From: Acidobacteriota bacterium
GTDB taxonomy: Bacteria > Acidobacteriota > Blastocatellia > RBC074
Assembly: GCA_031423495.1 (NCBI GenBank)
Contig: JANPFP010000066.1
Location: 26,380-90,379, forward strand
Direction: 5' to 3'
Length of the DNA stretch: 64,000 nt
Under the pieces are notes generated by a model. The model searched no databases, had not been told where the DNA came from, and saw nothing but the letters and a program-made list of their open reading frames with translations. Shown here piece by piece: positions 18,001 through 53,238 of this stretch (positions within the stretch are counted from its first letter, which is position 1; each line of letters opens with the position of its first letter). The position numbers and the translations under genes were made by a program.

Positions 18001-18265
18001 GGCAAAGGCGCGTGAGCGTCAGTGACAGTGCGCCCGTGCAACCGTTGGCATCGGTGGCGGTGACGGTGAAAGTGTTTGATCCGGTTGTAGTGGCCGTGCC
18101 GCTCAATACGCCAGCGCTGGTCAGTGTGAAACCAGCGGGCAATGTGCCCGCTGTGACAGCAAAGGTATAAGGCGTTGTGCCGCCTGTCGCCGCGAGCGTT
18201 TGGCTATAAGCTACGCCGAGGGTTGCGTCAGGCAAGCTCGCAGGCGTGAGTGAAATCGTCGTGCA
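1..18265 (-). repeat. Tandem array of about 68 coding repeats, period about 264–270 nt (one ~88-aa Ig-like domain each). It contains nested higher-order repeats (about 1.59 kb x3 around 12950–17750; about 0.8 kb x2 around 8200–9500).
   Basis: Recurring nucleotide motifs (ttataagc..., cgttcgcgtc..gtgaa, gtcggcgtaccgct) recur at about 265-nt spacing. Near-identical plus-strand shadow ORFs recur at 13761/15342/16932 and at 13184/14765/16355. Confidence 0.85.
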
Positions 18266-23483: not shown

Positions 23484-24920
23484 CTAGGCCGTTAATTCTG
23501 GAATCACGCGGCCTTCAACGACGGTCGGCACTTCGTTGCGTCCGTTGTGTTTATAAGCCGTCTTGAATTGGTTCAAGCCCATCAAATGCAAGATGGTCGC
23601 GTGAATGTCGTGTACGTGTGCGCGTTTCTCAATCGCCTTGAACCCAATCTCATCCGTAGCGCCGATGATCTGCCCGCCCTTGATGCCTGCGCCCGCCATC
23701 CACATCGAGAAACCCCACGGATTGTGATCGCGTCCGTCGCCTTTTTCGTTAAACGGCGTGCGTCCGAACTCGCCGCCCCAAATGACCAGCGTCGAATCAA
23801 GCAAGCCGCGTCCTTTCAAATCGGCCAACAAGCCCGCAATCGGCAGGTCGCTCGCGCCGCACCATTTTGAATGATTGGCTTCGATGTTCGCGTGCGCATC
23901 CCAGCCGCTGCCCGAACCGGAATAAAGTTGAATGAAGCGTACATCGCGTTCGACCAGACGGCGCGCGAGCAAACACATCGTACCGAACTTGTCGGTCTTC
24001 GCTTCGCCGATGCCGTAAAGTTTTTTGGTGATCTCAGTTTCTTTCGACAGGTCTACGGCTTCAGGCGCAGCGGATTGCATGCGATAGGCGAGTTCATACG
24101 AATTCAACCGAGCGAGCAATTCGGTGTCGTCGGGTTTGTCGGCGGAATAACGTTCGTTGAGTTGTTTGAGAAAATCGAGTTTGCCGCGTTGTTGCGCGTC
24201 GCTCACCGCATCAGGCGGCTTGACGTAATAGACCGGATTCGTACCCGCGCGAAATTGCGTGCCTTGATAAACCGCCGGTAAAAATCCGGCGCTCCAGTTT
24301 TTGGTGCCGCCTAGCACTTCGCCGCCATCTGCCATCACGACGTAAGTCGGCAGGTTCTGATTCGCCGTGCCCAACCCATAAGTCGCCCACGCGCCTAACG
24401 AAGGCCGCCCCGCCAGAATCGAACCCGTATTCATTTGGCAAACGGAGCCTACGTGATTGAGGCCGTCCATCCAGCACGAACGAATGACGGCGAGGTCGTC
24501 TGCGTGCTGGGCAATGTTCGGCAACCAATCGCTCACGGGAATACCGCTTTGCCCGTAATTTTTGAATACGCGCTGACTCGGCATGATCGTATTCGACGCC
24601 GTCCCCATCGCCGTGATCGGACGCCCAAACGACAACGGCATCGGCTGCCCCGCGAGTTTCAATAGTTCAGGTTTGGGGTCGAACGTGTCTATATGCGAAG
24701 GCCCGCCTTCCAAAAACAACCAGATGACCGATTTGGCGCGCGGCGTGTGATGCGGCTTTTTCGCGGCGAGCGGATCAAGCCGGTTGCCCTCAGCAGCGAA
24801 TCCGTCTGTGCCGAGGATAGAAGACAACGCGAGCGCAGAAAGTCCGGCGCTGGTTTGTTGCAAGAAGTGGCGACGGTGCAGAAAGTGATGTTGAGCAGAA
24901 TCAAGTAAATCAGCTTTCAT
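23484..24920 (-). CDS. DUF1501 family protein (sulfatase-like fold), Tat signal
   Basis: Tat motif [20 protein letters not shown], and DUF1501-type sequence throughout. The track start at 24986 reads through one arm of a 31-bp inverted repeat; the second Met (MKADLLDS, 24920) is preferred. Confidence 0.75.
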   Translation of the reverse strand: MKADLLDSAQHHFLHRRHFLQQTSAGLSALALSSILGTDGFAAEGNRLDPLAAKKPHHTPRAKSVIWLFLEGGPSHIDTFDPKPELLKLAGQPMPLSFGRPITAMGTASNTIMPSQRVFKNYGQSGIPVSDWLPNIAQHADDLAVIRSCWMDGLNHVGSVCQMNTGSILAGRPSLGAWATYGLGTANQNLPTYVVMADGGEVLGGTKNWSAGFLPAVYQGTQFRAGTNPVYYVKPPDAVSDAQQRGKLDFLKQLNERYSADKPDDTELLARLNSYELAYRMQSAAPEAVDLSKETEITKKLYGIGEAKTDKFGTMCLLARRLVERDVRFIQLYSGSGSGWDAHANIEANHSKWCGASDLPIAGLLADLKGRGLLDSTLVIWGGEFGRTPFNEKGDGRDHNPWGFSMWMAGAGIKGGQIIGATDEIGFKAIEKRAHVHDIHATILHLMGLNQFKTAYKHNGRNEVPTVVEGRVIPELTA

Positions 24921-24950
24921 ACTATTTCTCGTTTGGGTATCAACTGCCGT

Positions 24951-25051
24951 GTCAGTAGCCCGCGCGTAAGCAAGGGCTGCCTTCAAAATGTGTGCCTTGC
25001 AGCAACGGGCGCAAACTAGAGGCAGCCCTTGCTTACGCGCGGGCTACTGAC
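24951..25051. promoter_or_regulatory. Perfect 31-bp inverted repeat (gtcagtagcccgcgcgtaagcaagggctgcc / ggcagcccttgcttacgcgcgggctactgac) with a 39-nt spacer, lying between the DUF1549/1553 gene and the DUF1501 gene.
   Basis: Read directly from the sequence: stems at 24951–24981 and 25021–25051. Confidence 0.6.
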
Positions 25052-25061
25052 ACGCGGCCAA

Positions 25062-27260
25062 TCAATTCACGTAAACAAACTCGTTTGCATTCAACAGCGC
25101 GTGGCAAAAATCGGTCAACGCCGCCGGACGTGCGCCTAGCAAGGTCGTTTGCTTTTGAATGAACTCACGCGCGGCTTGCCGTTCGTCAGTTGCAGGCATG
25201 CGCGCCAACGCCAAGCGATAAGCCAGCGTAACTTGCGCATCCAAATCTTCGCCCGCCGTGCGTTGCACTCGTTCGGCAAAGGCTTGCGCAGCCGCCAAGA
25301 TCGTTTTGTCGTTCAACAGATTCAACGCTTGTGGCGCAGTCGTCGTGACCGAACGCCTGCCGCAGCTTTCGTGCGTATCGGGCATATCGAACGCCTGAAA
25401 CAGCGGATAGCGTGAGTTGCGCCGCACGAAGGCGTAAATGCTGCGGCGATTTTTGTTGGCTTCGGTTTCTTTGCGGTTCCAGCCGCCACGCACTTCCATC
25501 TCTTTGGGAATTTCAGGGAAGATCGAGGGGCCATACATCTGTTCATTCAACGTGCCGCTCACGCGCAACACCGCATCGCGGATTTCTTCGCCGCTCAAGC
25601 GCGCGCGGCGAAAGCGCCATAGCAAATTGTTGTCAGGATCAACCTGCGCGGCCTGTTCGTTAAACGTTGCGGCCTGTTGATAAGCATTCGACAGCATCAT
25701 CAGTCGGTGCATTCGCTTGAGGCTCCAGCCCTGTTCGACAAAAGTTGCCGCCAGCCAATCCAATAACTCAGAGTGCGTTTCGGTTTCGCGCATCTTTCCA
25801 AAATCGTTGGGCGAACCCACGATGCCGCGTCCGAAATGGTGATGCCAGAGGCGATTGACCATCACGCGCGCGACCAAAGGATTTTTCGGATCAGTCAGCC
25901 AGTTCGCCAACGCAGTGCGGCGTCCGGTCGAGACGACTTTGCCGCACGGTTCAACCTGCGCGTCACGCGGTTCGATGATCGTCAGATAACCGGGCTGAAC
26001 TTCTGCGCCGTAATTGTCATAGCCGCCGCCATTGAGCAAAAAGTGTTTCGGCGCTTCGAGGCCTACGTCAGTGATGCCCGAACCCAGCGGCAGCGGCGCG
26101 GGTTTGCTCGCATCAAATTTTGCCAACTCAGTCCGCAAGGCTTCCCACTGTTTTTTCTGTTCGCCTTTCAGCTTTTGCGCAACGCCGTTGCCGTCTTCGT
26201 CTACGCCGTAATTCAACTGCCATTGCGCCTTGTGATACATCAGCCATTGCATCGTGTCGCGCTTTGCTGCTGGCGTATTCACCGCCAATTGAATCTCTGC
26301 CGGATACTTGTCGAAGTTGTCGTCATAGATCGCTTTGCGCGCGACGGCTTCGAGTTTATCGAGTTGTTCTTGCAAGTCTTTGGTTTGGGCTTCCCACGCG
26401 GCGCGCTTGCGGGCGTAATCATCCTGCTCTGCTTTCGACACCAATACGTAATCATCTTTTGCGCGCGTCGCAGCAAAGAAAGCCTGCAAGCGGTAATAGT
26501 CTTTCTGCAACACCGGATCGTATTTGTGATCGTGGCAGCGCGCGCAGGCATAAGTCGTACCGAGCAAGGCCGCGCCGACCGTATCAGTGATGTCGTTCAA
26601 AATTTCCTGCCGCCGCTGCATCAAATTGCGCGCATTGTATTCATCGGGGTAATGCCGATTGAAACCCGTGGCGACCAATGCTTCAGGGTCATCCGGCCAC
26701 AACTCATCGCCCGCGATTTGTTCTTTGATGAAGCGGTCGTAAGGCTTATCGGCATTGAACGCGCGAATCACATAATCACGATAACGCCACACGTGAGGCC
26801 GCGTGTCGTCGGCTTTGAATCCGTCGCTCTCGGCGTAACGCGCTACGTCAAGCCAATGCCGCGCCCACTTCTCGCCGTAACGCGGACTCGCCAGCAAGCG
26901 ATCAACGACACGCTCAAACGCTTTCGGCGAACGGTCGTTGACGAAAGCGTCAACCTCTTCCGGCGTAGGCGGCAAGCCCGTCAAATCAAACGTAGCCCGT
27001 CGCAACAGCGTCACCTTGTCCGCCGCTGCGGCAGGCTTGAGCGCACTGGCTTCGAGTTTTTGCAGGATGAAAGCGTCTACCGGCGACTTGATCCACGTGC
27101 GCTTCTTAACCGCAGGCACGGCGGGTTTGGTGACAGGCTTATAAGCCCAATGGCTCAGATGCTCTTTGGTGAAAGCCGCATGATCGGCGAGTGTCAATAC
27201 ACCACAACCCAACGCAACCAACGCGGCGAGCAAGGCTTTGAAGCGAAAAGAGACGCGCAT
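25062..27260 (-). CDS. DUF1549 + DUF1553 domain protein (PSD1-type), with signal peptide
   Basis: CARCHDHKYDP (the DUF1549 motif), and a C-terminal DUF1553-like region ...[39 protein letters not shown]. It forms the typical pair with the downstream DUF1501 gene. Confidence 0.8.
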   Translation of the reverse strand: MRVSFRFKALLAALVALGCGVLTLADHAAFTKEHLSHWAYKPVTKPAVPAVKKRTWIKSPVDAFILQKLEASALKPAAAADKVTLLRRATFDLTGLPPTPEEVDAFVNDRSPKAFERVVDRLLASPRYGEKWARHWLDVARYAESDGFKADDTRPHVWRYRDYVIRAFNADKPYDRFIKEQIAGDELWPDDPEALVATGFNRHYPDEYNARNLMQRRQEILNDITDTVGAALLGTTYACARCHDHKYDPVLQKDYYRLQAFFAATRAKDDYVLVSKAEQDDYARKRAAWEAQTKDLQEQLDKLEAVARKAIYDDNFDKYPAEIQLAVNTPAAKRDTMQWLMYHKAQWQLNYGVDEDGNGVAQKLKGEQKKQWEALRTELAKFDASKPAPLPLGSGITDVGLEAPKHFLLNGGGYDNYGAEVQPGYLTIIEPRDAQVEPCGKVVSTGRRTALANWLTDPKNPLVARVMVNRLWHHHFGRGIVGSPNDFGKMRETETHSELLDWLAATFVEQGWSLKRMHRLMMLSNAYQQAATFNEQAAQVDPDNNLLWRFRRARLSGEEIRDAVLRVSGTLNEQMYGPSIFPEIPKEMEVRGGWNRKETEANKNRRSIYAFVRRNSRYPLFQAFDMPDTHESCGRRSVTTTAPQALNLLNDKTILAAAQAFAERVQRTAGEDLDAQVTLAYRLALARMPATDERQAAREFIQKQTTLLGARPAALTDFCHALLNANEFVYVN

Positions 27261-28758: not shown

Positions 28759-28763
28759 TGAAA

Positions 28764-28880
28764 TCAAAAGGCAAAAGGCAAAAGGCAAAAGGCAAAAGTG
28801 AAGAACCGCACGCAAGGTAAAAATAAAAGAGAGCAAGTGCCGCCCTTTTGATTTTTGCCTTTTGCCTTTTGCCTTTTGAT
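28764..28880. repeat. Inverted pair of heptamer arrays (AAAAGGC)x4–5 and (GCCTTTT)x4 flanking a 46-nt core; copy 1 of a dispersed element
   Basis: Read directly from the sequence: 28764–28798 atcaaaaggcaaaaggcaaaaggcaaaaggcaaaag and 28845–28880 cttttgatttttgccttttgccttttgccttttgat. It lies between the glcE-like stop and the glcF start. Confidence 0.8.
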
Positions 28881-28905
28881 TTTTTCCATCGTCAAGAGTG
28901 AGAGC

Positions 28906-34205: not shown

Positions 34206-34231
34206 TGTTGACGTTCTCCTCGGTGATAAAA

Positions 34232-34368
34232 AAGGTACAGCAACCTTTCCAGGTTGCTGAGGGCTTGTGCAAAAAAACACACTGAGAGAATGGTAAGGCG
34301 TGTGTATGTCCCGCTTGGTTTAGTAGACGCGACACCAATCCGCAGCAACCTGGAAAGGTTGCTGTACC
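34232..34368. terminator. Two copies of an identical 9-bp-stem hairpin (cagcaacc-tttcc-aggttgctg) in inverted orientation, lying between the PSCyt gene stop and the DUF1080 start
   Basis: Read directly from the sequence: 34236–34262 and 34341–34366. Confidence 0.4.
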
Positions 34369-34370
34369 GT

Positions 34371-37300
34371 TCACTTCGTGATCGTTTCGTCCAAATTCAA
34401 TAACACATTGGCGACCATCGTCCACGCCGCGAGTTCGGGCGAAGGCACCGATGATGAGGAAGCCTGTTTGACCACTTTAAGGGCTTCGTCAGCGTGCAAC
34501 TTGAAGTAAGCGAGTTGCTGCTGATAAAGCGCGGTGAGCCGTTCGAGTTCGGCTTTGTGCGGAGCGCGCGCTACGCACAGGCGCGTGCCGTAAGCCAAAT
34601 GCGACGATGCATCTGCACCTTCTTTCATCATTCGGCCAGCTAAGGCACGCGCGGCCTCAAACATTGCTTCGTCGTTTAACAGGTTCAGCGCCTGCAACGG
34701 CGTATTCGTTCGCGTACGCCGCACGACGCACGACTCGCGGCTGATGCCGTCGAAATTCAACATCATCGGATAAGGCGACGAGCGGCGCAGGAACGTATAC
34801 AAACTGCGGCGATAGCGGTCTGCGCCTTTGGCGTTCATCCATTTTTCGCTGCTGTAAGGCGCTTTCCAGATGCCTTCGGGTTGCAACGGCATGACCGACG
34901 GGCCGCCGACTTTTTGCGTCAACAAGCCGCTGATGGCGAATACAGTATCGCGCAACATTTCGGCTTCAAGCCTGAAACGCGGGCCGCGCGCGAGCAAGCG
35001 GTTGTAAGGGTCTTTCTCTTGCAAGGCGGGTGAACTAGCCGCCGCTTGCCGATAAGCCGATGAAGTCACGAGCGTACGAATGAGCTTTTTCATGCTCCAA
35101 TTCATGCCGCCTTGGTTAGCGGGTTTGCTGAACTCTACGGCGAGCCAGTCGAGCAATTCGGGGTGCGAAGGCGTGGCGGATTGCAGGCCGAAATCTTCTG
35201 ACGTCTCGACGATGCCGCGTCCGAAAAGCTGTTCCCAAAAACGATTGACTGCGACGCGCCCGACCAACGGATTGTCTGAACTGACCAGCCATTGCGCGAG
35301 TCCCAGGCGATTGGCGGGCGCGCTCTCAGGCAGCGCGTGCAACACGGCGGGCGTAGCCGCAAATACCTTTTCGCCTTTGCTCATGAAGTTGCCGCGTTCG
35401 CGCAAAAACGTGGCGGGGCGTTCAGCGGATTTCACTTCCTGCATCACCAGCGCCGACGTGATGCGCAAGGCTTTGAGTTCGTCGCGCAGCTTTTCTAACT
35501 GGTCGCGCGTCGCTTTGAACTCAGGCACGAGCGAACGATAACGATCGGCCAAATCCTGCTGTTGTTTGGCCGTACGCGCGGTTACCGCTTGGGCGAGAAC
35601 CGCTTGTTGCCGCGCTGAAATGTTCACGATCTCAAACGGCGTCTTGCTGTTCGTCACCGACAATCTGAAGCGTCCCATCGTTTGGCAAAGCGCGCCGCCT
35701 TGATGCCGCAACGTGATTTTTAATTGCGTACCGGTGGCCGCGCCAAAAGGCAAAGCGGTAGTGAATACGGCTTGGCGTGCTAGCCGTTGAGCTACATCAC
35801 CATTTGGGTCGTTGGTCGCATTGATCGCCCAACCCGCCGGACGATCAGCCACGCGCGTGTCGGTCTTGTCGGCAAAAATTTCGCGCGGTTCGGGTTTGTA
35901 AGCCGAATCATTCACGCGCAGATCTTTCAGCTTGATAGCTTGGCCTTTGCCGTTAAGCGGTACGGTTTCGACCGCGAAACCCGTCAGCAAAAAATTGCCA
36001 TAAGGGTCACGTCCCGGCCCGCCTTGCGGCAAGCTGGCGTCGGGCAACACTTCAAGCCGCAACGCAGTGATATTCGCCAGTTTGGTTTGCGCCGTGATGG
36101 TGAAAATTTCGCTCTCGCTTTGCGTGCCTGACACCAGCAACGAATGATCGCTTTGGGCGTTGAGTTGCGCGCCGCTGGCAGCTTCGGCCTTGAGCGGTTT
36201 GAGCGTCGTCCAGCTTTGCGGAGCATTCAGCAAAGCCTTTTCCCAAGCGGCTTGCGCGGCTTGGCGTTCAGGCGCATCGGCTTTGAGTTCGGCTTCGAGC
36301 TTTTTGATTTCGGCGTTCAGGCGTTGGCGTTGCGCGGCCTGTTCGGGCGAAGGCAAATCAAGCGCAGGCTCTTTCACAAAGCGCGTGAATTCCTCTTTCG
36401 TCACGCTCTGATAAGCGATTTCGTACTCGCTGTTTTCAAAAAACGCCAACAGCTTGTAATAGTCTTTTTGCGTGAACGGGTCGTATTTGTGGTTGTGGCA
36501 TTGCGCGCAACCGACGGTGGAACCCAGCCAGACCGTGCTGGTCGTATTCACGCGATCAACCAGTGTTTCCCAACGCGCTTCGTGCGGATCAACGCCACCT
36601 TCCTGATTAATCATTGTGTTGCGATGAAAGCCCGTCGCAATGCGCTGTTCTTCCGTAGCGTTCGGCAGCATGTCTCCCGCGATTTGTTCGATGGTGAATT
36701 GATCGAAAGGCTTGTCGGCGTTGAGTGCATTGATGACCCAGTCGCGGTACTTCCACATCACGCGCAGGTTGTCTTTTTCGTAACCGTTCGAATCGGCATA
36801 GCGCGCCAAATCCAACCACGGACGCGCCCAGCGTTCGCCATAAGCAGGCGACGCGAGCAGCTTGTCCACCACCTTTTCATAAGCGTTGGCTGAAGTGTCG
36901 GCGATGAATGCGTCTAGGTCTTGCGGCGAAGGCGGCAGGCCGATCACGTCGAGATATACGCGCCGCAACAAGACGGCTTTGTCCGCTTCAGGCGAAGGCC
37001 GCAATCCTTCTTTTTCGAGGCGCGCGAGAATGAAACTGTCTACGGCGTTGCGCACCCAGGCTTGGTTTTTGACGGTCGGCAAAGCGACTTGGCGCGGCTT
37101 CACATACGACCAATGTTTCGGCGTGTCGGATTTGAGATTTGAGATTGCGTCATCGGGCCAACTCGCGCCTTCATCAATCCAGCGAGCGATGAGGGCGATT
37201 TGTTCAGGCTTGAGCGCGCTGGCTTTGAGCGGCATTTGCACTTCGCCGCCTTCGCCTTTGAGGCGCGCCATCAAACGCGAAGCCTTGCTGTCACCAGCGA

Positions 37301-40289: not shown

Positions 40290-43133
40290 ATGCAACTTCG
40301 TCAATTGAAACGGCTGCTGCTCGCGTGCAGCTTATGCTTACTGGTTTATGGCTTTGGTTCCGTCGCCGCGCAATCGTCAGCACAAGACACTGCACAGGCT
40401 GAATTTTTTGAGAAACAGATTCGCCCGATCTTTGCTACGCAATGCGCGAGGTGCCACAACCCGAAAGCGCAGGTCGCCAAACTCGACCTCACGACGGCGG
40501 AAGGTTTCGCCAAAGGCGGCGAGAGCGGTGCGCTTATCAATAAAGACAAGCCGGAAGAGAGCCGCTTGCTCAAGGCGATTGGCTATAGCGAAACGCTCAA
40601 AATGCCGCCGACCGGCAAGCTGAAAGACGAAGAAATTCAAGCCCTCGCCGCGTGGGTCAAAGCGGGCGCTGTCTGGCCGGGCGCAGTCGCCACGGTTGCC
40701 AAAGCCGCCAAACCGGATTCGACGCGCGCATTCACCGAAGCCGAAAAAGCCTTTTGGTCGTTTCAACCGCTGGCGCGTCCGGCGCTTCCGAAAGTCAAAA
40801 ACAACGCTTGGGTTAAGGCTCCGATTGATGCGTTCGTCTTGCAACAACTCGAAGCGAAAGGACTCAAACCCGCAGTGCCAGCCGATAAGCTGACGCTGTT
40901 GCGACGCGCGACTTTTGATTTGACCGGCTTGCCGCCGAGCGAAAAAGAGATCAACGAATTCCTCGCCGACAACGCAAAAGATGCCTTTGCCACAGTGGTT
41001 GATCGTTTGTTGGCTTCTCCGCGTTACGGCGAGAAGTGGGGACGCCACTGGCTTGACGTGGCCCGTTATGCCGACTCGACCGGCAACGACGAAGATCATC
41101 GCTATCCGCACGCGTGGAAGTACCGCGATTACGTGATCGAATCTTTCAACAACGATTTGCCTTACGATCAATTTATCCGCGAACAAATCGCGGGCGATAT
41201 GTTGCCAAGCAAAGACGGTAGCGAAGTGAATCGGCGCGGCATTATCGCTACGGGATTTTTGGCGTTGGGGCCGAAAGCGATTGCGCAGCAAGACAAAAAG
41301 AAAATGTTGTATGACGTTTTCGACGAACAGGTAGACGTGACGACCAAAGCCTTTCTCGGCCTCACCGTAGCTTGCGCGCGCTGCCACAATCACAAGTTCG
41401 ATCCGCTGTTGACGAAAGATTATTACGCGCTGACCGGGATGTTTGCCAGCACCAAGAGTTTCTCGAACGCCGAATCGCACGTTTCAGTCCCGCTCGAAAA
41501 ACCGCTCGTGCCCAAAACGGAATGGGACAAATACAAAGCCGAACGCGATGCGCTGCAAGCGAAGCAGAGTGCTGCGATGACCGAGATCAGCGAGATCGTT
41601 GACAGCGTACGCGAACCCGCCGCGCGTGAACTCGTGCCGCGCACAGCGGATTACATGCTGGCGGCGCATCGTGTCTATGCCGAGAACGCGAATGCTCTCG
41701 ACGTAGCCGTTCGCGCCAAGCTCAATCTCGATGCGTTGCAACGTTGGGTCAAAGTTTTGAAACCCGAAGACCTCACGCCGCAACACTTGTTGGAATGGCG
41801 CAAGGCTACGGATGAAAAACGCGCTGCCGTGGCGCAACAATATCAGCAGCAATTGCAAACGCGTCTTGCCGGTTGGCTCAAGCGCATGGGCGAATGGCGC
41901 ACAGGCGGGAAGCCGCTGCAAACCGACAGCGATGGCCGAACCGTCAGGAAGCCGGTGTTTGAAGCCGGCGAAGATCGTTTCTTCCAAGCCGTTTATGTCA
42001 GCGGCACCGGCCCGCTCGGAATCACCGCTAAAGACAAAAAGCGTTTCAACGAAACGCAAAACAACCACATCGCTGAACTCGAAAAAGAAATCGAATCACT
42101 AAAAAAAGCCGCGCCGAAAGAACTCGATATGGCCTGCGCGGTGGAAGAAGGTGAAACGCTGGCACAGCCCGTATTCATTCGCGGCGATTACCACAGCGAG
42201 GGCGAAGAAGCGCCGCGCTCTTTCCCCGCGATCTTGTCGAAATTCGATACGCAGCCTGCTTTCAAAGGCAGCGGACGTTTGCAATTCGCCGAATGGCTCA
42301 CGCAACCCGAACATCCGTTGACGGCGCGTGTGCTGGTCAATCGTTTGTGGCAAGGCCATTTTGGCGAAGGCTTAGTTCGTACGCCGGACAATTTCGGCAA
42401 GATGGGCGAACGGGCTTCGCACCCTGAGTTGCTAGACTTTCTGGCGCGCGAATTCGTGCAAAGCGGTTGGTCAATCAAAGCGATGCACCGCGTGATGATG
42501 TTGTCGAACACTTATCAAATGGCGAGCGAAAACACGGCGGCGTTGAGTGCCGATCAAGACAATCGTTTGCTGTCGCGCTTCAATCGTCGTCGCCTCGCGG
42601 TCGAAGAATTGCGCGACGGCTTATTGCAAATTGACGGGACGATTGATTTGACGATGTTCGGTTCGTTGCAAAGCGGGCGCGGCACCGACGGCGAAACCAG
42701 CCAGGGCCGTTTGAGCATCAATCCCGACAAACAAAAACGGCGGACGGTTTATTTGCCGCTGCGTCGGGCGAACTTGTCTACGTTGCTGAATCTTTTTGAT
42801 TTTGGTGATGCGACGACGATGAGCGGCAAGCGGCAACTGACCAATGTTTCTACGCAGGCGTTGTTCTGGCTGAACAGCGAATTCCTGACCGACGGTTCGA
42901 CCACGATTGCCAAAGGCTTGTTGAGCGACGCCCAACTCACTGACGAAGCGCGCATCGCCAGCCTTTACCTGCGCGTGTTGAATCGCACTGCCGACTCGCG
43001 CGAAGTTGCCGCCGCGTTGCAATACGTGAATGCGTTCAAACAGAAATTCGCGGGCGAGCAAGCCGACCTCAAAGCGTGGCAGAGCTTCTGTCGCGTGTTG
43101 ATGGCGTCGAATGATTTCCTTTACGTTGACTAA
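40290..43133 (+). CDS. PSCyt2 + DUF1549 + DUF1553 protein, 947 aa, with signal peptide
   Basis: FEKQIRPIFATQCARCHNPKAQ (PSCyt), CARCHNHKFDP (DUF1549), and a C-terminal DUF1553-like region. Confidence 0.8.
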   Translation: MQLRQLKRLLLACSLCLLVYGFGSVAAQSSAQDTAQAEFFEKQIRPIFATQCARCHNPKAQVAKLDLTTAEGFAKGGESGALINKDKPEESRLLKAIGYSETLKMPPTGKLKDEEIQALAAWVKAGAVWPGAVATVAKAAKPDSTRAFTEAEKAFWSFQPLARPALPKVKNNAWVKAPIDAFVLQQLEAKGLKPAVPADKLTLLRRATFDLTGLPPSEKEINEFLADNAKDAFATVVDRLLASPRYGEKWGRHWLDVARYADSTGNDEDHRYPHAWKYRDYVIESFNNDLPYDQFIREQIAGDMLPSKDGSEVNRRGIIATGFLALGPKAIAQQDKKKMLYDVFDEQVDVTTKAFLGLTVACARCHNHKFDPLLTKDYYALTGMFASTKSFSNAESHVSVPLEKPLVPKTEWDKYKAERDALQAKQSAAMTEISEIVDSVREPAARELVPRTADYMLAAHRVYAENANALDVAVRAKLNLDALQRWVKVLKPEDLTPQHLLEWRKATDEKRAAVAQQYQQQLQTRLAGWLKRMGEWRTGGKPLQTDSDGRTVRKPVFEAGEDRFFQAVYVSGTGPLGITAKDKKRFNETQNNHIAELEKEIESLKKAAPKELDMACAVEEGETLAQPVFIRGDYHSEGEEAPRSFPAILSKFDTQPAFKGSGRLQFAEWLTQPEHPLTARVLVNRLWQGHFGEGLVRTPDNFGKMGERASHPELLDFLAREFVQSGWSIKAMHRVMMLSNTYQMASENTAALSADQDNRLLSRFNRRRLAVEELRDGLLQIDGTIDLTMFGSLQSGRGTDGETSQGRLSINPDKQKRRTVYLPLRRANLSTLLNLFDFGDATTMSGKRQLTNVSTQALFWLNSEFLTDGSTTIAKGLLSDAQLTDEARIASLYLRVLNRTADSREVAAALQYVNAFKQKFAGEQADLKAWQSFCRVLMASNDFLYVD

Positions 43134-44373: not shown

Positions 44374-44377
44374 TTAT

Positions 44378-44529
44378 GGAGTGCTGCGGCTCGACGCAGC
44401 TTTTCGTTCGCCGCGATTCGACTCAGGTTACCCCAAGCGGTCAAATGCGAACGCAACGCTGCGGCGATATTAAGGGTTACCCCAAGCGGTCAATTGCGAA
44501 CGAAAAGCTGCGTCGAGCCGCAGCACTCC
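44378..44529. promoter_or_regulatory. Structured intergenic element: a perfect 34-bp inverted repeat enclosing two 27-nt direct repeats (gttaccccaagcggtcaa[a/t]tgcgaacg)
   Basis: Read directly from the sequence: stems 44378–44411 and 44496–44529; DRs at 44427–44453 and 44476–44502. Confidence 0.6.
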
Positions 44530-44551
44530 ATGTCGCACTGAAAGGGCTGAA

Positions 44552-47500
44552 ATGAAGAAAAATCAAAAGGCAAAAGGCAAAAGGCAAAAGGCAAAAGTGG
44601 AATGCGGAAGCAGAGCTTTTTCTGTATTTCCGAAATCAAGTTCCGAACTTTTTCCTTTTGTGTCTGGCTTTCTGAACTTTTGCCTTTTGCCTTTTGCCTT
44701 TTGCCTTTTGATTTTTCTGCTGCTTGCCTTTCCGGCGTTCAGCCAGGAGCCCGCGCTAAAGGCCGAAATCGGCATGCCCTTGCTGCGCAATTACACGTCG
44801 AAGGAATACGGAGCCTCCGCCCAGAACTGGAGCATTCTGCAGGATCGTCGTGGCGTGCTCTACGTCGGCAACCTCGGAGCTGCCGTGCTGGAATACGACG
44901 GCGTTACCTGGCGCAAGATCAGCATCCCCGGCGCAGGTCGTTCCCTCGCCCTGGACGCTGCGGGAAAGATTTGGGTGGGTTCTCAGGCGGACTTCGGTTT
45001 CCTGGAACCCGACGCCAACGGCACGCTGCAATACGTCTCGCTGGTTGAGAAGATTCCGCCGGAGCACCGCAGCTTCAACGATGTCTGGCGGGTGCTGTCC
45101 ACTCCACAGGGAACCTTCTTTCAATCCTACGCGCGCCTCTTCCGCTGGGATGGCCAGCGGGTGCAGGTCTGGGCCACGAAGACGCGCTTTGAAGCGCTCT
45201 CGGAAGTGCGTGGTCGCATCTATACCTCGCAGATCGGCATCGGTTTGCAGGAAATTGTGGGCGATGAATTACGCAACCTGCCCGGTGGCGTGGCCTGGAA
45301 AGATTCCATCAAGCTCATTCTGCATCCGTATGACGAACAGCGCATCCTGGTCTCTGCCCAGCGGGAAACGCTAACACTTTACGATGGTGAGCAGGTGACC
45401 CTGTTTCCGACTCAGGCGGACGATCATCTCAGGAAAAGCGAACTCTACACGTCCACGCCGCTCCCCGATGGCGGCTTCTGCCTCAACACTCAGGCTGGTG
45501 GCGCGGTGATCATTGAGCGCGATGGTCGGCTGCGCCGCATTCTGGACAAGGATTCCGGGCTGCAAACTCAGAAGGTCAATGCGGCTTTTACTGATCGCGA
45601 GGGTGCCTTATGGCTGGCGCTTGGCTCCGGCATCTCCCGCGTGGACATCAACTCCCCGATTGCTCTCTTTTCCCGCCAAAGCGGTTTCGATGTCATGCGC
45701 CACGGCGGCTCGCTCTACGTTACGTCTTTACACACGGGCGTTGCGCTCTACCGCCTGGAGCCGAATCGAACCACTGGCCTGGCCGCCTTGCAACCGATCC
45801 CTTCTCGTGCTGTTCAGGCTTATCGCCTGCTATCCTTCCTTGATCCCGCTGGCAAAGCGCCGCCCCAGTTGCTCGCCGCCGCCTTTTATTATGGTGTCAT
45901 GAAAATCGAGGGCGATGTAATTTCCCCGACCCTGCCACGCGAGCAAGGGCTGGTAGAGTGGGGGGACACGCTGCTGCAATCCCGGCAATTTCCTAACCGC
46001 GTGTTTGCGGGGTACTCGGGTAGCCTGTCTTCCATCCGCTGGGAAAACGGTCAATGGATTAATGAGGGCCGCATTCCCACCAACAGCGTTGTGAGGTCAT
46101 TGGCTGAAGAGGGCGATGGCACGCTTTGGGCTGGTACCAGCACGGGCGGCGTGCTGCGCGTGGTCGTCCCCGCCACCGGGATGCGTGATGCGAAAGTGGA
46201 ACGCTTCACTGAAAAAGACGGGCTGGGGAAACGCGTGCATGAGGTGCTCCACGCAGACGGCCAACTTTTCGTTATTCCGTCCCCGACGAAGAACATCCTG
46301 CGCTGGGATGGAGCGGCTCGTCGTTTTATCCCTGACAACCGCTTCCTGCTTCCGCTGCCAGACCCCGAGGCGGGGGCTAGATTGCAGTTACTCCCAAACG
46401 GCGACATCTGGTCCAGAACTTCAACACTCAACGATCAACGGCAGGGCATCTTTCGCCGCCAGGCTGATGGAACCTATCAACTCGACGAAGCGCCTTTCCG
46501 CGGCTTGTCCCGGTTCGGGGTTCGCAACGTCCTGTCTGAGTCGGACGGCAGCCTCTGGATTGCCGGTGATGACGGCCTCGTCCGCTTTGACCAGCGGATG
46601 AAACCCACCGCCGCGCCGCCTTTCTCCGCGTTGGTGCGCCGCGTCAGCGCAGGGGCGGACGCCATCGTCTTCGGTGGAGCAACACTCGCCGCTCCGCTGC
46701 GTCTGCCCTTCGCCCGCAACTCGCTGCACTTTGAATTCGCCGCGCCGAGTTACGGCGACGAAGCGGGAACCGCATATCAATACCGCCTGGAAGGAGCCGA
46801 CAAAGACTGGTCGGGCTGGGGCAGGCAAACCGAAGCCAACTACAACAACCTCGGCCCCGGCGCGTACCGGATGCGCGTCCAGGCGCGCACCAGTGATGGT
46901 CGCCTCAGCGAAGAAGGAGCCTTCAGCTTCACGATCCTGCCGCCGTGGTATCGCACGTGGTGGGCTTATGGTTTTTATGCGCTGCTGCTGGCGGCGTTGA
47001 TTTATGCGGCTGCGCGCCTGTTGCGGCGACGTGTCGAGGCGCGCGAACAAGCGAAAGCCGCGCAACGCGAAGCGGAGTTGCGCGCGGAAACTGCTCTGCG
47101 CGAAGCCGAGTTGCGCGCCGATGCCGCCGCCGCGCAGGCGAAATCGCTGCAAGCCGAAAACGAGGCTTATCAACGCCTCAAAGCGACGCAGGAACAATTG
47201 CTGGTGCAGGAAAAACTGGCTTCGCTCGGAGCCTTGACCGCAGGCATCGCGCACGAGATCAAGAATCCGCTGAACTTCGTCAACAACTTCGCCGACCTGT
47301 CGGTAGAACTGATGGACGAATTGCGCGAAGACATCGAAAAGAACAAGGCCGCGATTCCTGCGAAGGATTACGAGAACATCGAAGCCTTGCTCGACGACCT
47401 GACCGGCAACGCCAAAAAGATCAACGAACACGGCAAACGCGCCGACGGCATCGTGCGCAGCATGCTGCTGCATTCGCGCGGGCAAGCGGGCGAACGCCAA

Positions 47501-48648: not shown

Positions 48649-49691
48649 TTATGGAAAAGGAGCTACCAATCAACTCAGCCGAGCCGGACGATCAAGACAG
48701 CGCGTGGAAAGACTTGCTCGACGCCTGCTTGCCGGAGTTCATGGCTTTCTTCTTTCCGCACGTCGAGTGCGAAGTAGATTGGACGCGCCGATACGAGCCG
48801 ATGGATAAAGAGTTGGCGCAACTTAAACCTGATTTGCCAAGCGGCAAACTGTATGCGGATAAGCTCTATCAGGTTTGGCTCAAGAACGGGCAAGCCAAAT
48901 GGATTTTGATTCACATCGAAGTGCAGGGACGCGCCCTTCGTGGTTTTGCGCGCCGGGTCTTTGATTACAATTATCGTATCGGCGCAAAGTATCCGAACGT
49001 AGATGTTGTGAGCTTGGCGATCATCACCGAAACCAAACGCCCGGTGGCGGGACGTTATGAAAAATCGGCGTTCGGCTGTTCGGTGGTGTTTACGTTTCCG
49101 CTGGCGCAATTGGCTGCGTATGCGAACAAGTTGGCGGAGTTGGAAAAGAATCCGAACCCTTTTGCGTTGGCTGTGGCAGTGCAGTTGAAAGCGTTGGAAA
49201 CGCGCGGTGATAATCAAAGCCGGTACGGATGGAAGAAAGCCTTTATTGCCGGGTTGCGCAAACGTCGCTATCCGCGTGAGAGAATTGCTGCGTTGCTCAG
49301 GTTTATGGATTGGGCGATGCGGTTGCCCGCTGCGTTGGAAGAGCGCCTCAAAAACGAGATCAAAGGAGTACAGAGCATGTCGTATGTAACGTCTTGGGAA
49401 AGAATGGCAGAACAAAAAGGCAAGCAGATAGGCAAACAGGAAGGTAAACAGGAAGGCAAGCAGGAAGCCTCGTTGTCGCTGGTGACAATGTTTCTTTCAG
49501 AGCAATTTGGTACGTTGAGCGACACGCTGCAAATAAAATTGCGAAAGCTATCCACTGAACAATTGCAATCCTTGTTTGCCGACGCGCTCAAGTTTGAAGC
49601 CCAGTCTGACGTGACAACCTGGCTGAAACAGCACGCGAACCAGATGGCGGCGAAACATAACGGAACACATTCAAAGAAAAAGGGCCAATGA
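48645..49691 (+). CDS. Rpn-family recombination-promoting nuclease / putative transposase (YhgA-like, PDDEXK_7 + DUF4351)
   Basis: N-terminal PD-(D/E)xK-like region (ILIHIEVQ...) and a C-terminal LSTEQLQSLFADALKFEAQSDVTTWL (DUF4351-like). Internal KQEGKQEGKQ repeat. A 4-nt overlap with both neighbouring genes. Confidence 0.65.
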   Translation: MIMEKELPINSAEPDDQDSAWKDLLDACLPEFMAFFFPHVECEVDWTRRYEPMDKELAQLKPDLPSGKLYADKLYQVWLKNGQAKWILIHIEVQGRALRGFARRVFDYNYRIGAKYPNVDVVSLAIITETKRPVAGRYEKSAFGCSVVFTFPLAQLAAYANKLAELEKNPNPFALAVAVQLKALETRGDNQSRYGWKKAFIAGLRKRRYPRERIAALLRFMDWAMRLPAALEERLKNEIKGVQSMSYVTSWERMAEQKGKQIGKQEGKQEGKQEASLSLVTMFLSEQFGTLSDTLQIKLRKLSTEQLQSLFADALKFEAQSDVTTWLKQHANQMAAKHNGTHSKKKGQ

Positions 49692-51175
49692 AAAACCTAA
49701 ACATGTCTGAGTCATTGCAACATCTCTATCGTCGCGTCGAAAAACCGCAATCGCGCCGCGCCTGGTTACGCGCCGCCGGACTCGGTTTCGGCTCGCTGGC
49801 ATTGGCTGGATTGTGCGGCGAAGAAAATCAGGCATACGCCACTCCGCACTCCGCACTCCTCACTCCGCAATCAGAGAATCCGCTCGCGCCGAAAGCGCCG
49901 CATTTCGCGCCCAAAGCCAAGCGCGTGATCTTTCTGTTTATGCACGGCGGGCCTTCGAGCATTGATTCGTTCGACCCGAAAGAGCGTCTCATCCGCGATC
50001 ACGGCAAGCCATTGCCGATCAAGCGACCGCTGGCGTTTGCCGATGGCAAGATGGGGCCGTTGATGCGTCCGCTGTGGGATTTCAGGCCGGGCGGCAAGAG
50101 CGGCATTCCGGTGAGTGACTTGTGGCCGAACGTGCGCGACGTAGTGGACGAGCTTTGCATCATCCGCTCAATGGTCGGCGAGGGCGTAGACCACGGCGCG
50201 GCGTTGTTGCAATCGTTCACTGGCTCTTCGACGTTTGTGCGTCCGAGCATGGGTTCGTGGTCGCTTTATGGTTTGGGGACTGAGAATCAGAACCTGCCGG
50301 GGTTCATTACGATCAAGCCTTCGCTGTCGCACGGCGGAGCTAAAAACTGGGCTTCGGCGTTTTTGCCCGGCGCTTATCAAGGTACGGCCATCGGCAATTC
50401 CGGCCTTAAAGTAGACGACATCAAAAATCAGCCGATTGATTACCTCGTAGGCAAACATCTGACCGGCGACGCGCAGCGTTTCGAGCTGGAGATGTTGCAA
50501 AACATCAATCGCCGCCATCAGGAATTGCGCAAGCAAGACACGCAACTCGAAGCGCGCATTCAAGCCTTCGAACTCGCCTTTCGCATGCAATCAGAAGCGC
50601 CCGAAGCGTTTCAGGTAGACAAAGAATCTGACGCGACCAAAAAACTTTATGGCATGGATAACCCGTTGACGGCTGATTTCGGCTGGCAATGTTTGCTCGC
50701 GCGGCGCTTGGCCGAACGTGGCGTGCGCTACATTCAATGCACGCACAGTTACAAATGGGATCAGCACGAAGACCTGTACAACCTGCACAACAAAAACGCG
50801 CGCGAAGTTGACCTGCCCATTGCCGGATTGATTCGTGACTTGAAGTCGCGCGATTTGTTGAAAGATACGCTGGTGATTTGGGCGGGTGAGTTCGGACGCA
50901 CGCCGGTCAGCGAAAGCGGCGACGGACGCGACCATAATCCTTACGGCTATACGATCTGGATGGCGGGCGGCGGCGTGAAGCCCGGCTTCGTTTACGGCGC
51001 GACGGACGAGATTGGTTATCACGCCGTCGAAGACCGCATGCACATCAACGACTTCCACGCGACCGTGTTGCACCTGCTCGGCCTCGACCACGAACGGCTG
51101 ACCTATCAATACAGCGGACGCAATTTCAGGCTGACCGACGTAGCGGGCGTCGTCGCCAACAAGATCATCGCGTAG
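49688..51175 (+). CDS. DUF1501 family protein (Tat signal); an orphan, with no adjacent DUF1549/1553 partner
   Basis: RRAWLRAAGLGFGSLALAGL (Tat-like), and it is homologous over its whole length to the 23484–24920 DUF1501 gene. Confidence 0.8.
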   Translation: MKNLNMSESLQHLYRRVEKPQSRRAWLRAAGLGFGSLALAGLCGEENQAYATPHSALLTPQSENPLAPKAPHFAPKAKRVIFLFMHGGPSSIDSFDPKERLIRDHGKPLPIKRPLAFADGKMGPLMRPLWDFRPGGKSGIPVSDLWPNVRDVVDELCIIRSMVGEGVDHGAALLQSFTGSSTFVRPSMGSWSLYGLGTENQNLPGFITIKPSLSHGGAKNWASAFLPGAYQGTAIGNSGLKVDDIKNQPIDYLVGKHLTGDAQRFELEMLQNINRRHQELRKQDTQLEARIQAFELAFRMQSEAPEAFQVDKESDATKKLYGMDNPLTADFGWQCLLARRLAERGVRYIQCTHSYKWDQHEDLYNLHNKNAREVDLPIAGLIRDLKSRDLLKDTLVIWAGEFGRTPVSESGDGRDHNPYGYTIWMAGGGVKPGFVYGATDEIGYHAVEDRMHINDFHATVLHLLGLDHERLTYQYSGRNFRLTDVAGVVANKIIA

Positions 51176-52535: not shown

Positions 52536-52616
52536 CAAGATAAGGTGGAGCGCAACAGCTTCGGGATAGTCGAGATAGACGAAGCCTTCAGTCACCACGG
52601 CGTTTTATAGACATCA

Positions 52617-52846
52617 AGAAAATGATTTTCCAAAAAAGCCCCAACGGGGCGATGGTAAAACAGCCCGGGGTGAAGCCCTGGGATAAAGTACGCGCGACAA
52701 ACAAGCCCTGAAAGGGCGTGATAGTTGCGCGATTATTTCGCCCTTTCAGGGCTTGCCGAAAATCCCCGTTTCGTTCCCAGGGCTTCACCCTGGGCTTTAA
52801 TACAGTCGCCCCGTTGGGGCTTTCTGCGGAGGATCATTTTCTTGAA
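52617..52846. repeat. ~230-nt imperfect palindrome (two ~110-nt arms, each containing three short hairpins) between the 129-aa gene stop and the PHP gene; MITE-like or structured-RNA candidate
   Basis: Arm 1, 52618–52727 (…aaagccccaacggggcga…cccggggtgaagccctggg…caagccctgaaagggcg), is reverse-complementary to arm 2, 52739–52846. Confidence 0.7.
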
Positions 52847-52848
52847 AG

Positions 52849-53238
52849 CTATAGCTCCTCAAACGCTTCGCCATATTGGTTCAGGGTACGCTCGACCGCT
52901 GATTTTATCGCGGGCGACGGCGACGGCAGGACTTCAACCCGCAGCGCGCCGTGTTTGGCATAAATCGTCAACAACGAACCGGACGCAAAGCCCGCCGCCG
53001 CCGCCAAGTCTGACGGCATCTCAAGAAACCAGCCCGGCTCGCGTTGCCGCGCTTCTTCAGTTTGCACTGCCAGATTCATCAACGCGGTAATTTTGCCGGG
53101 GCGCGCAAACAACGTAACCAGCGAACCGGCAGGCACGCCAAACAGGTCTTCGGCAATTTCTTTGGGCATCGCCGCAATCCAGGCTTGATCTATGCGCTGC
53201 GGCGTTTCAGTCAGCGTTAAAGCGGTTGATAAACTCAT
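52849..53238 (-). CDS. Hypothetical protein with two tandem AbrB/MazE-like (swapped-hairpin) segments
   Basis: Internal duplication: MPKEIAEDLFGVPAGSLVTLFARPGKITALMNL / MPSDLAAAAGFASGSLLTIYAKHGALRVEVL. Confidence 0.4.
   Translation of the reverse strand: MSLSTALTLTETPQRIDQAWIAAMPKEIAEDLFGVPAGSLVTLFARPGKITALMNLAVQTEEARQREPGWFLEMPSDLAAAAGFASGSLLTIYAKHGALRVEVLPSPSPAIKSAVERTLNQYGEAFEEL

Follow-up and report, generated by a model that had tools for sequence, protein, structure and literature searches.

The element analysed here, a 244-bp palindrome in a 64,000-nt stretch of an Acidobacteriota genome (GTDB lineage Blastocatellia, RBC074; GenBank assembly GCA_031423495.1, contig JANPFP010000066.1, positions 26,380 to 90,379 of the forward strand; hereafter the window), has its closest described counterparts in three kinds of mobile DNA and in one family catalogued as RNA. 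In insertion sequences of the IS200/IS605 group the ends are not inverted repeats, both hairpins lie on one strand and insertion normally leaves no duplication, and the binding of single-stranded hairpins, their cutting and their rejoining are established for the TnpA proteins of IS608 and ISDra2 and for the RAYT of Escherichia coli (the tyrosine transposase that goes with repetitive extragenic palindromes, REPs). REP doublets known as REPINs measure, in their classical form, roughly 50–110 nt. They are non-coding and consist of two short inverted palindromic units that fold, together with a spacer, into one long hairpin, and their units flank a single small HUH/Y1 gene in inverted orientation (Bertels and Rainey, 2011; PMC3116915, PMC3337134). 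The third kind comprises the miniature inverted-repeat transposable elements (MITEs) derived from DDE transposons, which are small and non-coding, have imperfect terminal inverted repeats with a 2-bp TA at the junctions, insert as a unit and have a longer gene-carrying counterpart with the same ends. The RNA family is Acido-Lenti-1 (Rfam RF01687), an isolated two-hairpin small RNA (sRNA) that was rated a likely RNA with covariation and was found near group II introns in Lentisphaerae, no function being given (Weinberg et al., 2010; PMC2864571); according to a 2026 preprint its function is still unknown, although a regulatory role near Tannerella protease genes is speculated upon.

In our view the palindrome is likely to be a REPIN/MITE-type element that is non-autonomous and is mobilised in trans by an IS200-like Y1 transposase. 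Its insertion, its conserved architecture, the covariation of one of its stems and the physical association of its family with a Y1 gene are direct observations, from which we infer that the Y1 protein mobilises the window copy in trans. Elements of this general kind are known, but the literature searched does not appear to describe this family, its three-hairpin arms, its distribution over phyla or its being the same as an Rfam 'sRNA'.

Insertion of the element into a small open reading frame

The palindrome is a discrete 244-bp insertion that moved as a unit into a TA. This is seen by comparing the filled site in the window with empty sites at the same locus, found through cluster variants (95% identical in amino acids) of the protein encoded beside the element. 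The features that define the site are the following.

52608–52851: whole element, a six-hairpin inverted doublet and 244-bp palindromic insertion, delimited by filled versus empty site
52606–52607: TA at the left end, where the empty site has a single TA
52852–52853: TA at the right end, which contributes to the final Leu codon (CTA) in the 129-aa open reading frame (ORF)
52849–53238, minus strand: 129-aa ORF cut short by the insertion; uninterrupted alleles encode 134 aa
52588–52605, minus strand: displaced original end of the ORF, AAA CGC CGT GGT GAC TGA, now downstream of the element

Two contigs from two different ENA samples (L128 and L129) read GAGGAGCTA|AAACGACTTGG without the element (also given as GAGGAGCTA|AAACGACTTGGCGACTGAAGG); the junction expected after precise excision is GAGGAGCTAAAACG. 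When positions 52608–52853 are removed from the window, the remainder aligns to L128 over 472 nt without a gap, with 434 identical positions (92%), and the alignment runs 75 nt past the junction. Read on the minus strand, the empty site is GAGGAGC-TA-AAACG and the filled one GAGGAGC-TA-[element]-TA-AAACG, in full GAGGAGC-TA-[TAGCTTTCAAGAAAATGA...TCATTTTCTTGATGTCTA]-TA-AAACGCCGTGGTGACTGAAGG, that is, with TA at both junctions against a single TA before insertion. The target TA lies five codons before the end of the ORF, which has lost those five codons (the 134-aa variants end in ...EAFEELKRLGD). A search for the empty site through homologues of the downstream 456-aa gene returned relatives at 74–86% identity with different neighbours and no element.

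The first-pass annotation, made from the sequence alone, had placed the palindrome at 52617–52846 (about 230 nt), beginning 3 nt after the stop of the 129-aa gene. A palindrome does lie there, but the empty site sets wider boundaries, and the supposed separation from the gene does not exist: the first three bases of the element on the minus strand, its terminal TAG (52849–52851), now serve as the stop codon of that very gene.

Architecture of the palindrome

The element can be read as two inverted three-hairpin ends, each running tail-hp2-hp1-hp3 towards the middle (hp, hairpin), joined by a 22-nt centre. Its parts are listed below.

52608–52634, plus strand: left terminal tail, an imperfect terminal inverted repeat, TAGACATCAAGAAAATGATTTTCC...
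52637–52682, minus strand: left-arm module (hp1, linker and hp2), a sub-threshold match to RF01687
52638–52650: hp2 of the left arm, GCCCCAACGGGGC, GCCCC-AAC-GGGGC; in the other arm at 52808–52820
52664–52682: hp1 of the left arm, CCCGGGGTGAAGCCCTGGG, CCCGGGG-TGAAG-CCCTGGG; in the other arm at 52776–52794
52705–52717: hp3, left of the centre, GCCCTGAAAGGGC, GCCCT-GAA-AGGGC
52718–52739: short variable centre of 22 nt between hp3 and hp3'
52740–52752: hp3', right of the centre, GCCCT-TTC-AGGGC
52776–52821, plus strand: right-arm module (hp1 52776–52794, linker, hp2 52808–52820), a sub-threshold match to RF01687
52822–52851, plus strand: right terminal tail, ...GGAGGATCATTTTCTTGAAAGCTA

Either strand of 52600–52860 is predicted to fold into one long hairpin, with a minimum free energy of -157.4 kcal/mol for the minus and -163.2 kcal/mol for the plus strand, against about -80 +/- 5 kcal/mol for dinucleotide shuffles (z = -14.9 and -16.3, respectively; 0 of 200 shuffles as low); a folding check had been proposed in the first-pass annotation. 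The arms are less alike than the near-perfect palindrome with a few mismatches described there: the long inverted repeat is real, but global alignment of one arm with the reverse complement of the other gives 95 matches in 127 positions (75%), and a repeat finder reports the palindrome as three separate blocks, of 49 nt (88%), 27 nt (85%) and 44 nt (70%). Agreement between the arms is concentrated in the hairpins, with 17/17 matching positions in hp2, 20/21 in hp1 and 16/16 in hp3 (53/54 in sum), compared with roughly 50% in the linkers (5/10 between hp2 and hp1, 9/20 between hp1 and hp3), 6/10 in the centre and 22/29 in the tails. The three hairpins announced for each arm are thus all present, and the one quoted as gggtgaagccc exists within a longer hp1. 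In the left arm hp1 has a single A·C mismatch on the Rfam strand, which is G·T on the complement. The element is non-coding, the only ORFs that cross its 244 bp being mechanical ones. Three sequencing runs of the same species are represented by Logan contigs (L001–L003; L002 and L122 are of the same run), each of which reproduces one arm exactly and ends in the centre; the palindrome is therefore not an assembly artefact.

A hairpin family in at least twelve phyla

The right-arm module contains the exact hp1 21-mer CCCAGGGCTTCACCCNGGGCT. A scan for this 21-mer over a set with one genome for each species gave at least 114 genome stretches, whereas about one is expected by chance (2 × 596 Gb / 4^20). 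The matches listed fall into at least 12 phyla, among them Planctomycetota, Verrucomicrobiota, Lentisphaerota, Bacteroidota, Chlorobiota, Acidobacteriota, Desulfobacterota, Nitrospinota, Calditrichota, Cloacimonadota and Sumerlaeota; the whole hp1-linker-hp2 module is present in about 125 of the 137 matches listed, and some 12 lie inside genes and look like chance. In hp2 the sequence is free to vary and the pairing is kept: all five base pairs show changes on both sides (62 cells), and the observed value of compensatory changes is attained in 0 of 500 shuffles. The loops of hp2 vary as well (TTC 29 times, GTT 9, TTT 5, and others).

The commonest arrangement among the matches listed is the six-hairpin inverted doublet seen in the window. 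Ten loci, in Bacteroidales, Verrucomicrobia, Desulfobacteraceae and Planctomycetales, have two exact hp1 copies 121–143 nt apart in (-,+) order, and all ten repeat the window layout, which on one strand reads rc(hp2)-rc(hp1)-linker-hp3-variable centre-hp3'-linker-hp1-hp2 (rc, reverse complement); hp3 is kept in doublets of four other phyla. Three acidobacterial doublets at unrelated loci, one in L049 (Blastocatellia) and two in L096, also have six hairpins, and they share with the window element tails of the form TATAGACAT[CT]AAGAAAAT...ATTTTCTTRA-nnn-CTA, L049 having the portion TATAGACAT[CT]AAGAAAAT and L096 a related one. With a looser structural scan, 223 modules were counted in the 773 kb of hit loci and 30 in shuffled sequence. 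Adjacent (-,+) pairs of modules have an inner gap of 81–137 nt in 37 of 48 cases (93 nt in the window); pairs in other orientations are less common and scattered. The family also occurs frequently as single modules or as tandem arrays with a spacing of 74–200 nt, and several copies per genome are seen, among the matches listed, in the Bacteroidales metagenome-assembled genome (MAG) CALZMA01, in Tannerella OT808 and in Desulfobacteraceae JAABRU01. A metagenome scan with a pattern made of the 3' half of hp1, a GTT-loop hp2 and the TTCTTRA tail gave one match, L127, which is a different variant. Viral contigs scanned with the hp1 21-mer gave 0 matches and plasmids searched by blastn with the element gave none, so that nothing points to carriage by phages or plasmids.

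Two further observations concern variation within the family. In the Bacteroidales MAGs CALZMA01 and CAMGGA01 (L022, L029, L062, L113, L007, L031, L047, L051, L067, L074, L104) everything is conserved except 12–15 nt beside hp1, between TCGGA and TAA-CCCAGGG, a stretch that is unlike in every copy and between arms but of fixed length; in the window element, too, the corresponding linker is conserved least. In Prosthecobacter (L101, 2790–3040 and 3500–3830) some hp1 copies have a much enlarged loop, e.g., CCCAGGG-tcagcgaggaacgagcgcag-CCCTGGG, and the tip of the hairpin therefore tolerates insertions.

Relation to Acido-Lenti-1

Both arms match a single Rfam family, RF01687, over its full length (model positions 1–46) and in an orientation that points outward from the centre, with 25.0 bits for the left-arm module (E = 9e-4 in a 351-nt search) and 24.8 bits for the right-arm module; hp3' adds a partial match (52733–52752 to model positions 26–45). 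These scores lie below the gathering score of 37 bits, so that the window modules are not members of RF01687 by that measure, and a gathering-level Rfam scan of the whole window gave no match. The architecture of the family is nevertheless there: two hairpins of 7–8 bp and 5 bp, a linker of about 12 nt, and the conserved single-stranded GGCU after hp1 and CG...CU around hp2, in an acidobacterial host that is consistent with the family's taxa. Compared with the model, the window copies have an hp1 loop that is shorter by 1 nt, GUU as the hp2 loop and more nucleotides in the linker. They also differ in context, since the Rfam entry is an isolated two-hairpin unit whereas here the module is half an arm of a larger DNA element. 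Relatives do pass the gathering score, namely the L037 doublet (38.3 and 38.2 bits) and L049 (37.5 bits), and the modules that flank Y1 genes in other genomes reach 40–59 bits. The published seed itself, with 89 instances and many per genome, contains modules in tandem arrays and, in one case, an inverted pair whose geometry is that of the window doublet.

The mismatches in the stems bear on which strand folds. On the Rfam strand, A·C and C·A mismatches outnumber G·U pairs 23 to 1 in the family alignment assembled here and 38 to 8 in the published seed, where one genome dominates and the counts are not independent. Such an excess corresponds to tolerated G·T pairs on the complement, which is therefore probably the folding strand, and RF01687 may have been annotated on the strand that does not fold. 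We hold it somewhat more probable than the opposite that Acido-Lenti-1 is not an RNA gene but the hairpin end (REP) of a multi-phylum REPIN-type system whose partner is a Y1 transposase of subclass 1.2.

A Y1 transposase gene at the centre of related doublets

When 2188 ORFs of at least 90 aa from the hit loci were clustered all against all, one specific family recurred besides generic kinases and ABC ATPases, a Y1_Tnp protein of about 150 aa found at six loci in several phyla (Pfam PF01797, E = 1e-21 to 1e-30). In four of the six (L059, L098, L055 and L058) the gene lies exactly at the centre of a doublet, between hp3 and hp3'. A reverse search returned 2972 Y1 homologues, nearly all of 150 aa, many of them on contigs of 0.7–1.5 kb and named 'REP element-mobilizing transposase RayT' by JGI. 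Four of these (L118–L121) were picked solely for their long contigs, and all four turned out to be flanked by Acido-Lenti-1 matches above the gathering score, with the (-, gene, +) arrangement in L119 and L120 and with hp1 stems that carry compensatory differences from the window hp1. Overall, the Y1 gene adjoins modules in ten loci of several phyla and stands exactly at the doublet centre, flanked by inverted units, in eight (L059, L098, L055, L058 and L118–L121). The complete gene-carrying unit measures about 0.7 kb, and a second class of (-,+) gaps, of 566–724 nt, corresponds to these units.

In the partner proteins both the HUH and the Tyr signature are preserved (DH[VIL]H, WQ, YIxNQxEHH). 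They score 56–77 bits against the IS200/IS605 model NF033573 (cutoff 55) and 20–35 bits against REP_Tyr_transpos, NF047646 (cutoff 80), and so fall outside the RAYTs (TnpA_REP, class 2). Their nearest solved relatives are the transposases of IS608 (2A6M) and ISDra2 (2XM3) and the Sulfolobus IS200-type transposases; no E. coli RAYT structure appeared among their PDB matches. Judged by motif set and length they appear to match 'subclass 1.2' of Quentin et al. (2018; PMC6006769), of which it is said that it 'does not share IS properties' and 'REP: no'. Abundant flanking repeats were reported mainly for RAYT groups 2 and 3, and an unusual 'IS200 Group 3', in which 16-mers abound in the flanks and duplication is absent, was also noted (Bertels et al., 2017); this group may or may not be the clade of the partner proteins.

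Beside some Y1 genes there are tandem arrays of modules, in 94–95-nt hp1-hp2-hp3 units in L055 (3700–4700) and in 55–70-nt units in L118 (3500–3720) and L121 (2390–2900 and 3450–3600), which resemble the BIME (bacterial interspersed mosaic element) clusters of E. coli REPs. Short-read assemblies end inside these palindromes, and most Y1 homologues sit on 0.7–1.5-kb contigs that hold about one gene plus flanking modules, which probably leaves the family under-represented in MAGs.

Comparison with described systems and proposed mechanism

The window family shares with the REPIN/RAYT system the two inverted palindromic units that form one long hairpin with their spacer, the absence of coding capacity, the coexistence of singlets, doublets and clusters, the conservation of hairpins while spacers drift and, in the other genomes, the inverted units on either side of a single small HUH/Y1 gene. 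It departs from that system in having three hairpins and a tail per arm and a length of 244 bp, in a partner protein nearer to the IS200/IS608 TnpA than to RAYTs, in lacking a GTAG tag, and in a 21-nt hairpin that is identical in at least 12 phyla, whereas REP families are lineage-specific. With the IS200/IS605 elements and palindrome-associated transposable elements (PATEs) it has in common the Y1_Tnp fold with its HUH and Tyr motifs, subterminal hairpins that the enzyme would recognise and a unit of about 0.7 kb; its ends, however, are inverted with TA on both sides, unlike the PATE pattern of subterminal hairpins without terminal inverted repeats or duplication. The general traits of a MITE are also present (244 bp, non-coding, tails complementary at 22/29 positions), and the clean insertion against an empty site, the like doublets at unrelated loci and the gene-carrying counterpart bear out the first-pass suggestion of a miniature inverted-repeat element. 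It differs from DDE-derived MITEs in that the associated gene is HUH/Y1 and in that the conserved parts are internal hairpins with covarying stems, which points to a folded single strand, and not duplex termini, as what is recognised.

Because the same inverted ends bracket a Y1 gene in other genomes, the window element would be a gene-less derivative of a unit whose inverted ends elsewhere enclose a 150-aa HUH/Y1 gene. The Y1 enzyme would recognise the hairpins in single-stranded DNA, then cut the element and rejoin it at a new site, which for the window copy would have been the TA five codons before the end of the small ORF.

Several findings weigh against this proposal. The arms of the window copy have diverged to 75% complementarity, and it may therefore be old and immobile. 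The imperfect terminal repeats and the TA at both junctions are unlike the usual IS200/IS605 ends, the Rfam match reaches 25 bits against the required 37, and the empty site comes from a single locus, in two samples. The published classification (PMC6006769) gives subclass 1.2 no REPs and no properties of insertion sequences. The 64-kb window holds no Y1 ORF, nor any second copy of the element: three sub-motifs, with up to 3 mismatches allowed, and a structural scan led back to the two arms, and the two further matches obtained correspond to the expected false-positive rate; the source genome is thus represented by one copy within its 64 kb examined. A lack of further copies, together with poor conservation in relatives, had been named at the outset as what would refute a mobile element, and the reading withstands this test: there are no further copies in the window, but it belongs to a widespread family with conserved hairpins.

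Alternative explanations

Among the alternatives, a classical MITE moved by a TA-duplicating DDE transposase (IS630/Tc1-mariner type), with the Y1 gene as a passenger or a coincidence, is one that we regard as improbable. The TA at both junctions against the single TA of the empty site would be expected from such a transposase, and the termini are imperfect inverted repeats starting TAG...CTA. No DDE transposase recurs among the 2188 clustered ORFs of the hit loci, however, where Y1_Tnp is the only recurrent family besides kinases and ABC ATPases, and the Y1 gene occupies precisely the doublet centre in eight loci of several phyla. Moreover, Bacteroidales copies with well-defined ends (GCGTTCAAGG...CCTTGAACGC) have no flanking duplication, the two sides of L049 differ (TA and TG), and a Y1 cleavage motif ending in TA at the target and at the element end would give the same picture without duplication. 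Because of these copies, the two TAs of the window could be either a true duplication or a TA cleavage motif shared by target and element end.

Quite improbable, too, is the view that the palindrome is a pair of Acido-Lenti-1 sRNA genes, or a cis-acting terminator or stabiliser of the upstream gene, with selection acting on a transcript. It is favoured by the classification of the motif as sRNA in Rfam and its rating as a likely RNA by Weinberg et al. (2010), by the covariation of hp2, by the regulatory role near Tannerella protease genes put forward in the 2026 preprint and by a terminator-like site on the transcribed minus strand, where the last hairpin GCCCCGTTGGGGC (52650–52638) is followed by T6, the only intrinsic-terminator pattern found. 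Yet the T-run is not a feature of the family, neither window module has a promoter-like site upstream in its sense orientation, the element inserted into an ORF and cut it short, and modules are found in either orientation, in arrays and on the flanks of a transposase gene. The preponderance of A·C over G·U (23 to 1 and 38 to 8) is the opposite of what RNA folding on the Rfam strand would leave. The structured RNA or terminator that the first-pass annotation had offered as options is accordingly not the primary explanation, although the terminator-like hairpin may have a side effect on the upstream transcript.

Some group II introns target attC sites, and the taxa of the family overlap with integron-bearing phyla, a point counted in favour of an attC-type site. 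A site-specific recombination site of this integron type, considered because of the group II introns that Weinberg et al. note near the motif, has a very slim chance of being correct: an imperfect palindrome just after an ORF, with outer-hairpin GTTGGGG and CCCCAAC loosely like R'/R'' boxes, would suit it, but the core sites RYYYAAC and GTTRRRY are not conserved at the palindrome ends, the GTT/AAC loop being variable in the family (TTC, TTT and TAC being commoner), single modules and tandem arrays (74–200 nt spacing) are frequent, the total length of about 185–245 nt is greater than is usual for attC, the clustered ORFs of the hit loci include no recurrent integrase, and the insertion lies inside an ORF rather than between cassettes.

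Gene context and other repeats of the window

The element is located between two minus-strand ORFs, the 129-aa one (52849–53238) and one listed as 477 aa with a GTG start; the product of the latter would be 456 aa long, the real start probably being MMKKLL near 52535. In the uninterrupted locus (L128, 628–1026) a 132-aa Fic/Doc gene overlaps the 134-aa gene by 11 nt, as in a toxin-antitoxin-like pair. Only about 21 codons of the Fic/Doc gene are left in the window (52536–52598, minus strand, VVTEGFVYLDYPEAVALHLILM), fused in frame to the 456-aa 'histidinol-phosphatase-like' gene; besides having taken up the insertion, the locus therefore bears the scar of a rearrangement. By the names of homologues, the source is probably Blastocatellia-like.

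Other palindromes occur in intergenic gaps of the window. One at 24948–25054, between two minus-strand ORFs, belongs to an unrelated sequence family and has perfect 35-nt arms, a 37-nt loop and a folding energy of -94 kcal/mol; two adjacent long ones (44376–44531 and 44556–44718) have perfect arms of 36 and 43 nt, the second being made of (AAAAGGC)n runs with a sister copy at 28761–28884. From these, the source genome appears to be rich in several long hairpin repeat families. An intergenic inverted repeat at 34231–34371 has 39-nt arms (87%) with a GCAACC-UUUCC-AGGUUGC hairpin in each. A very long coding region (1–18300, minus strand), which runs off the start of the window, consists of diverged units in tandem, dozens of them and each about 261 nt (87 aa) long, and presumably encodes a giant repeat-domain surface protein. 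Inverted DNA similarity of 71–84% links 23674–24775 with 49878–50985 and 26493–27110 with 40794–41426, two distant gene pairs that look like diverged paralogues rather than mobile repeats, since the first involves the DUF1501 gene at 49688–51175.

Implications

If the proposal is correct, a testable function becomes available for an Rfam family that has been annotated since 2010 as non-coding RNA of unknown function, an annotation that is already prompting regulatory speculation, and repeat partners would be assigned to a Y1 subclass described without them. In practical terms, palindromes of this kind break short-read assemblies and can truncate genes, as in the window. The REPIN/RAYT idea would be extended from a few proteobacterial lineages to Acidobacteriota, the PVC (Planctomycetes-Verrucomicrobia-Chlamydiae) phyla, Bacteroidota, Desulfobacterota and others, with a REPIN-like system outside Proteobacteria that is backed by a direct comparison of filled and empty sites. 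As hp1 is exact across phyla whereas hp2 covaries freely, the family offers a natural dissection of how a Y1 protein reads sequence as opposed to shape. A 21-nt hairpin identical in at least 12 phyla would imply either a very old, frozen code of protein-DNA recognition or frequent horizontal transfer.

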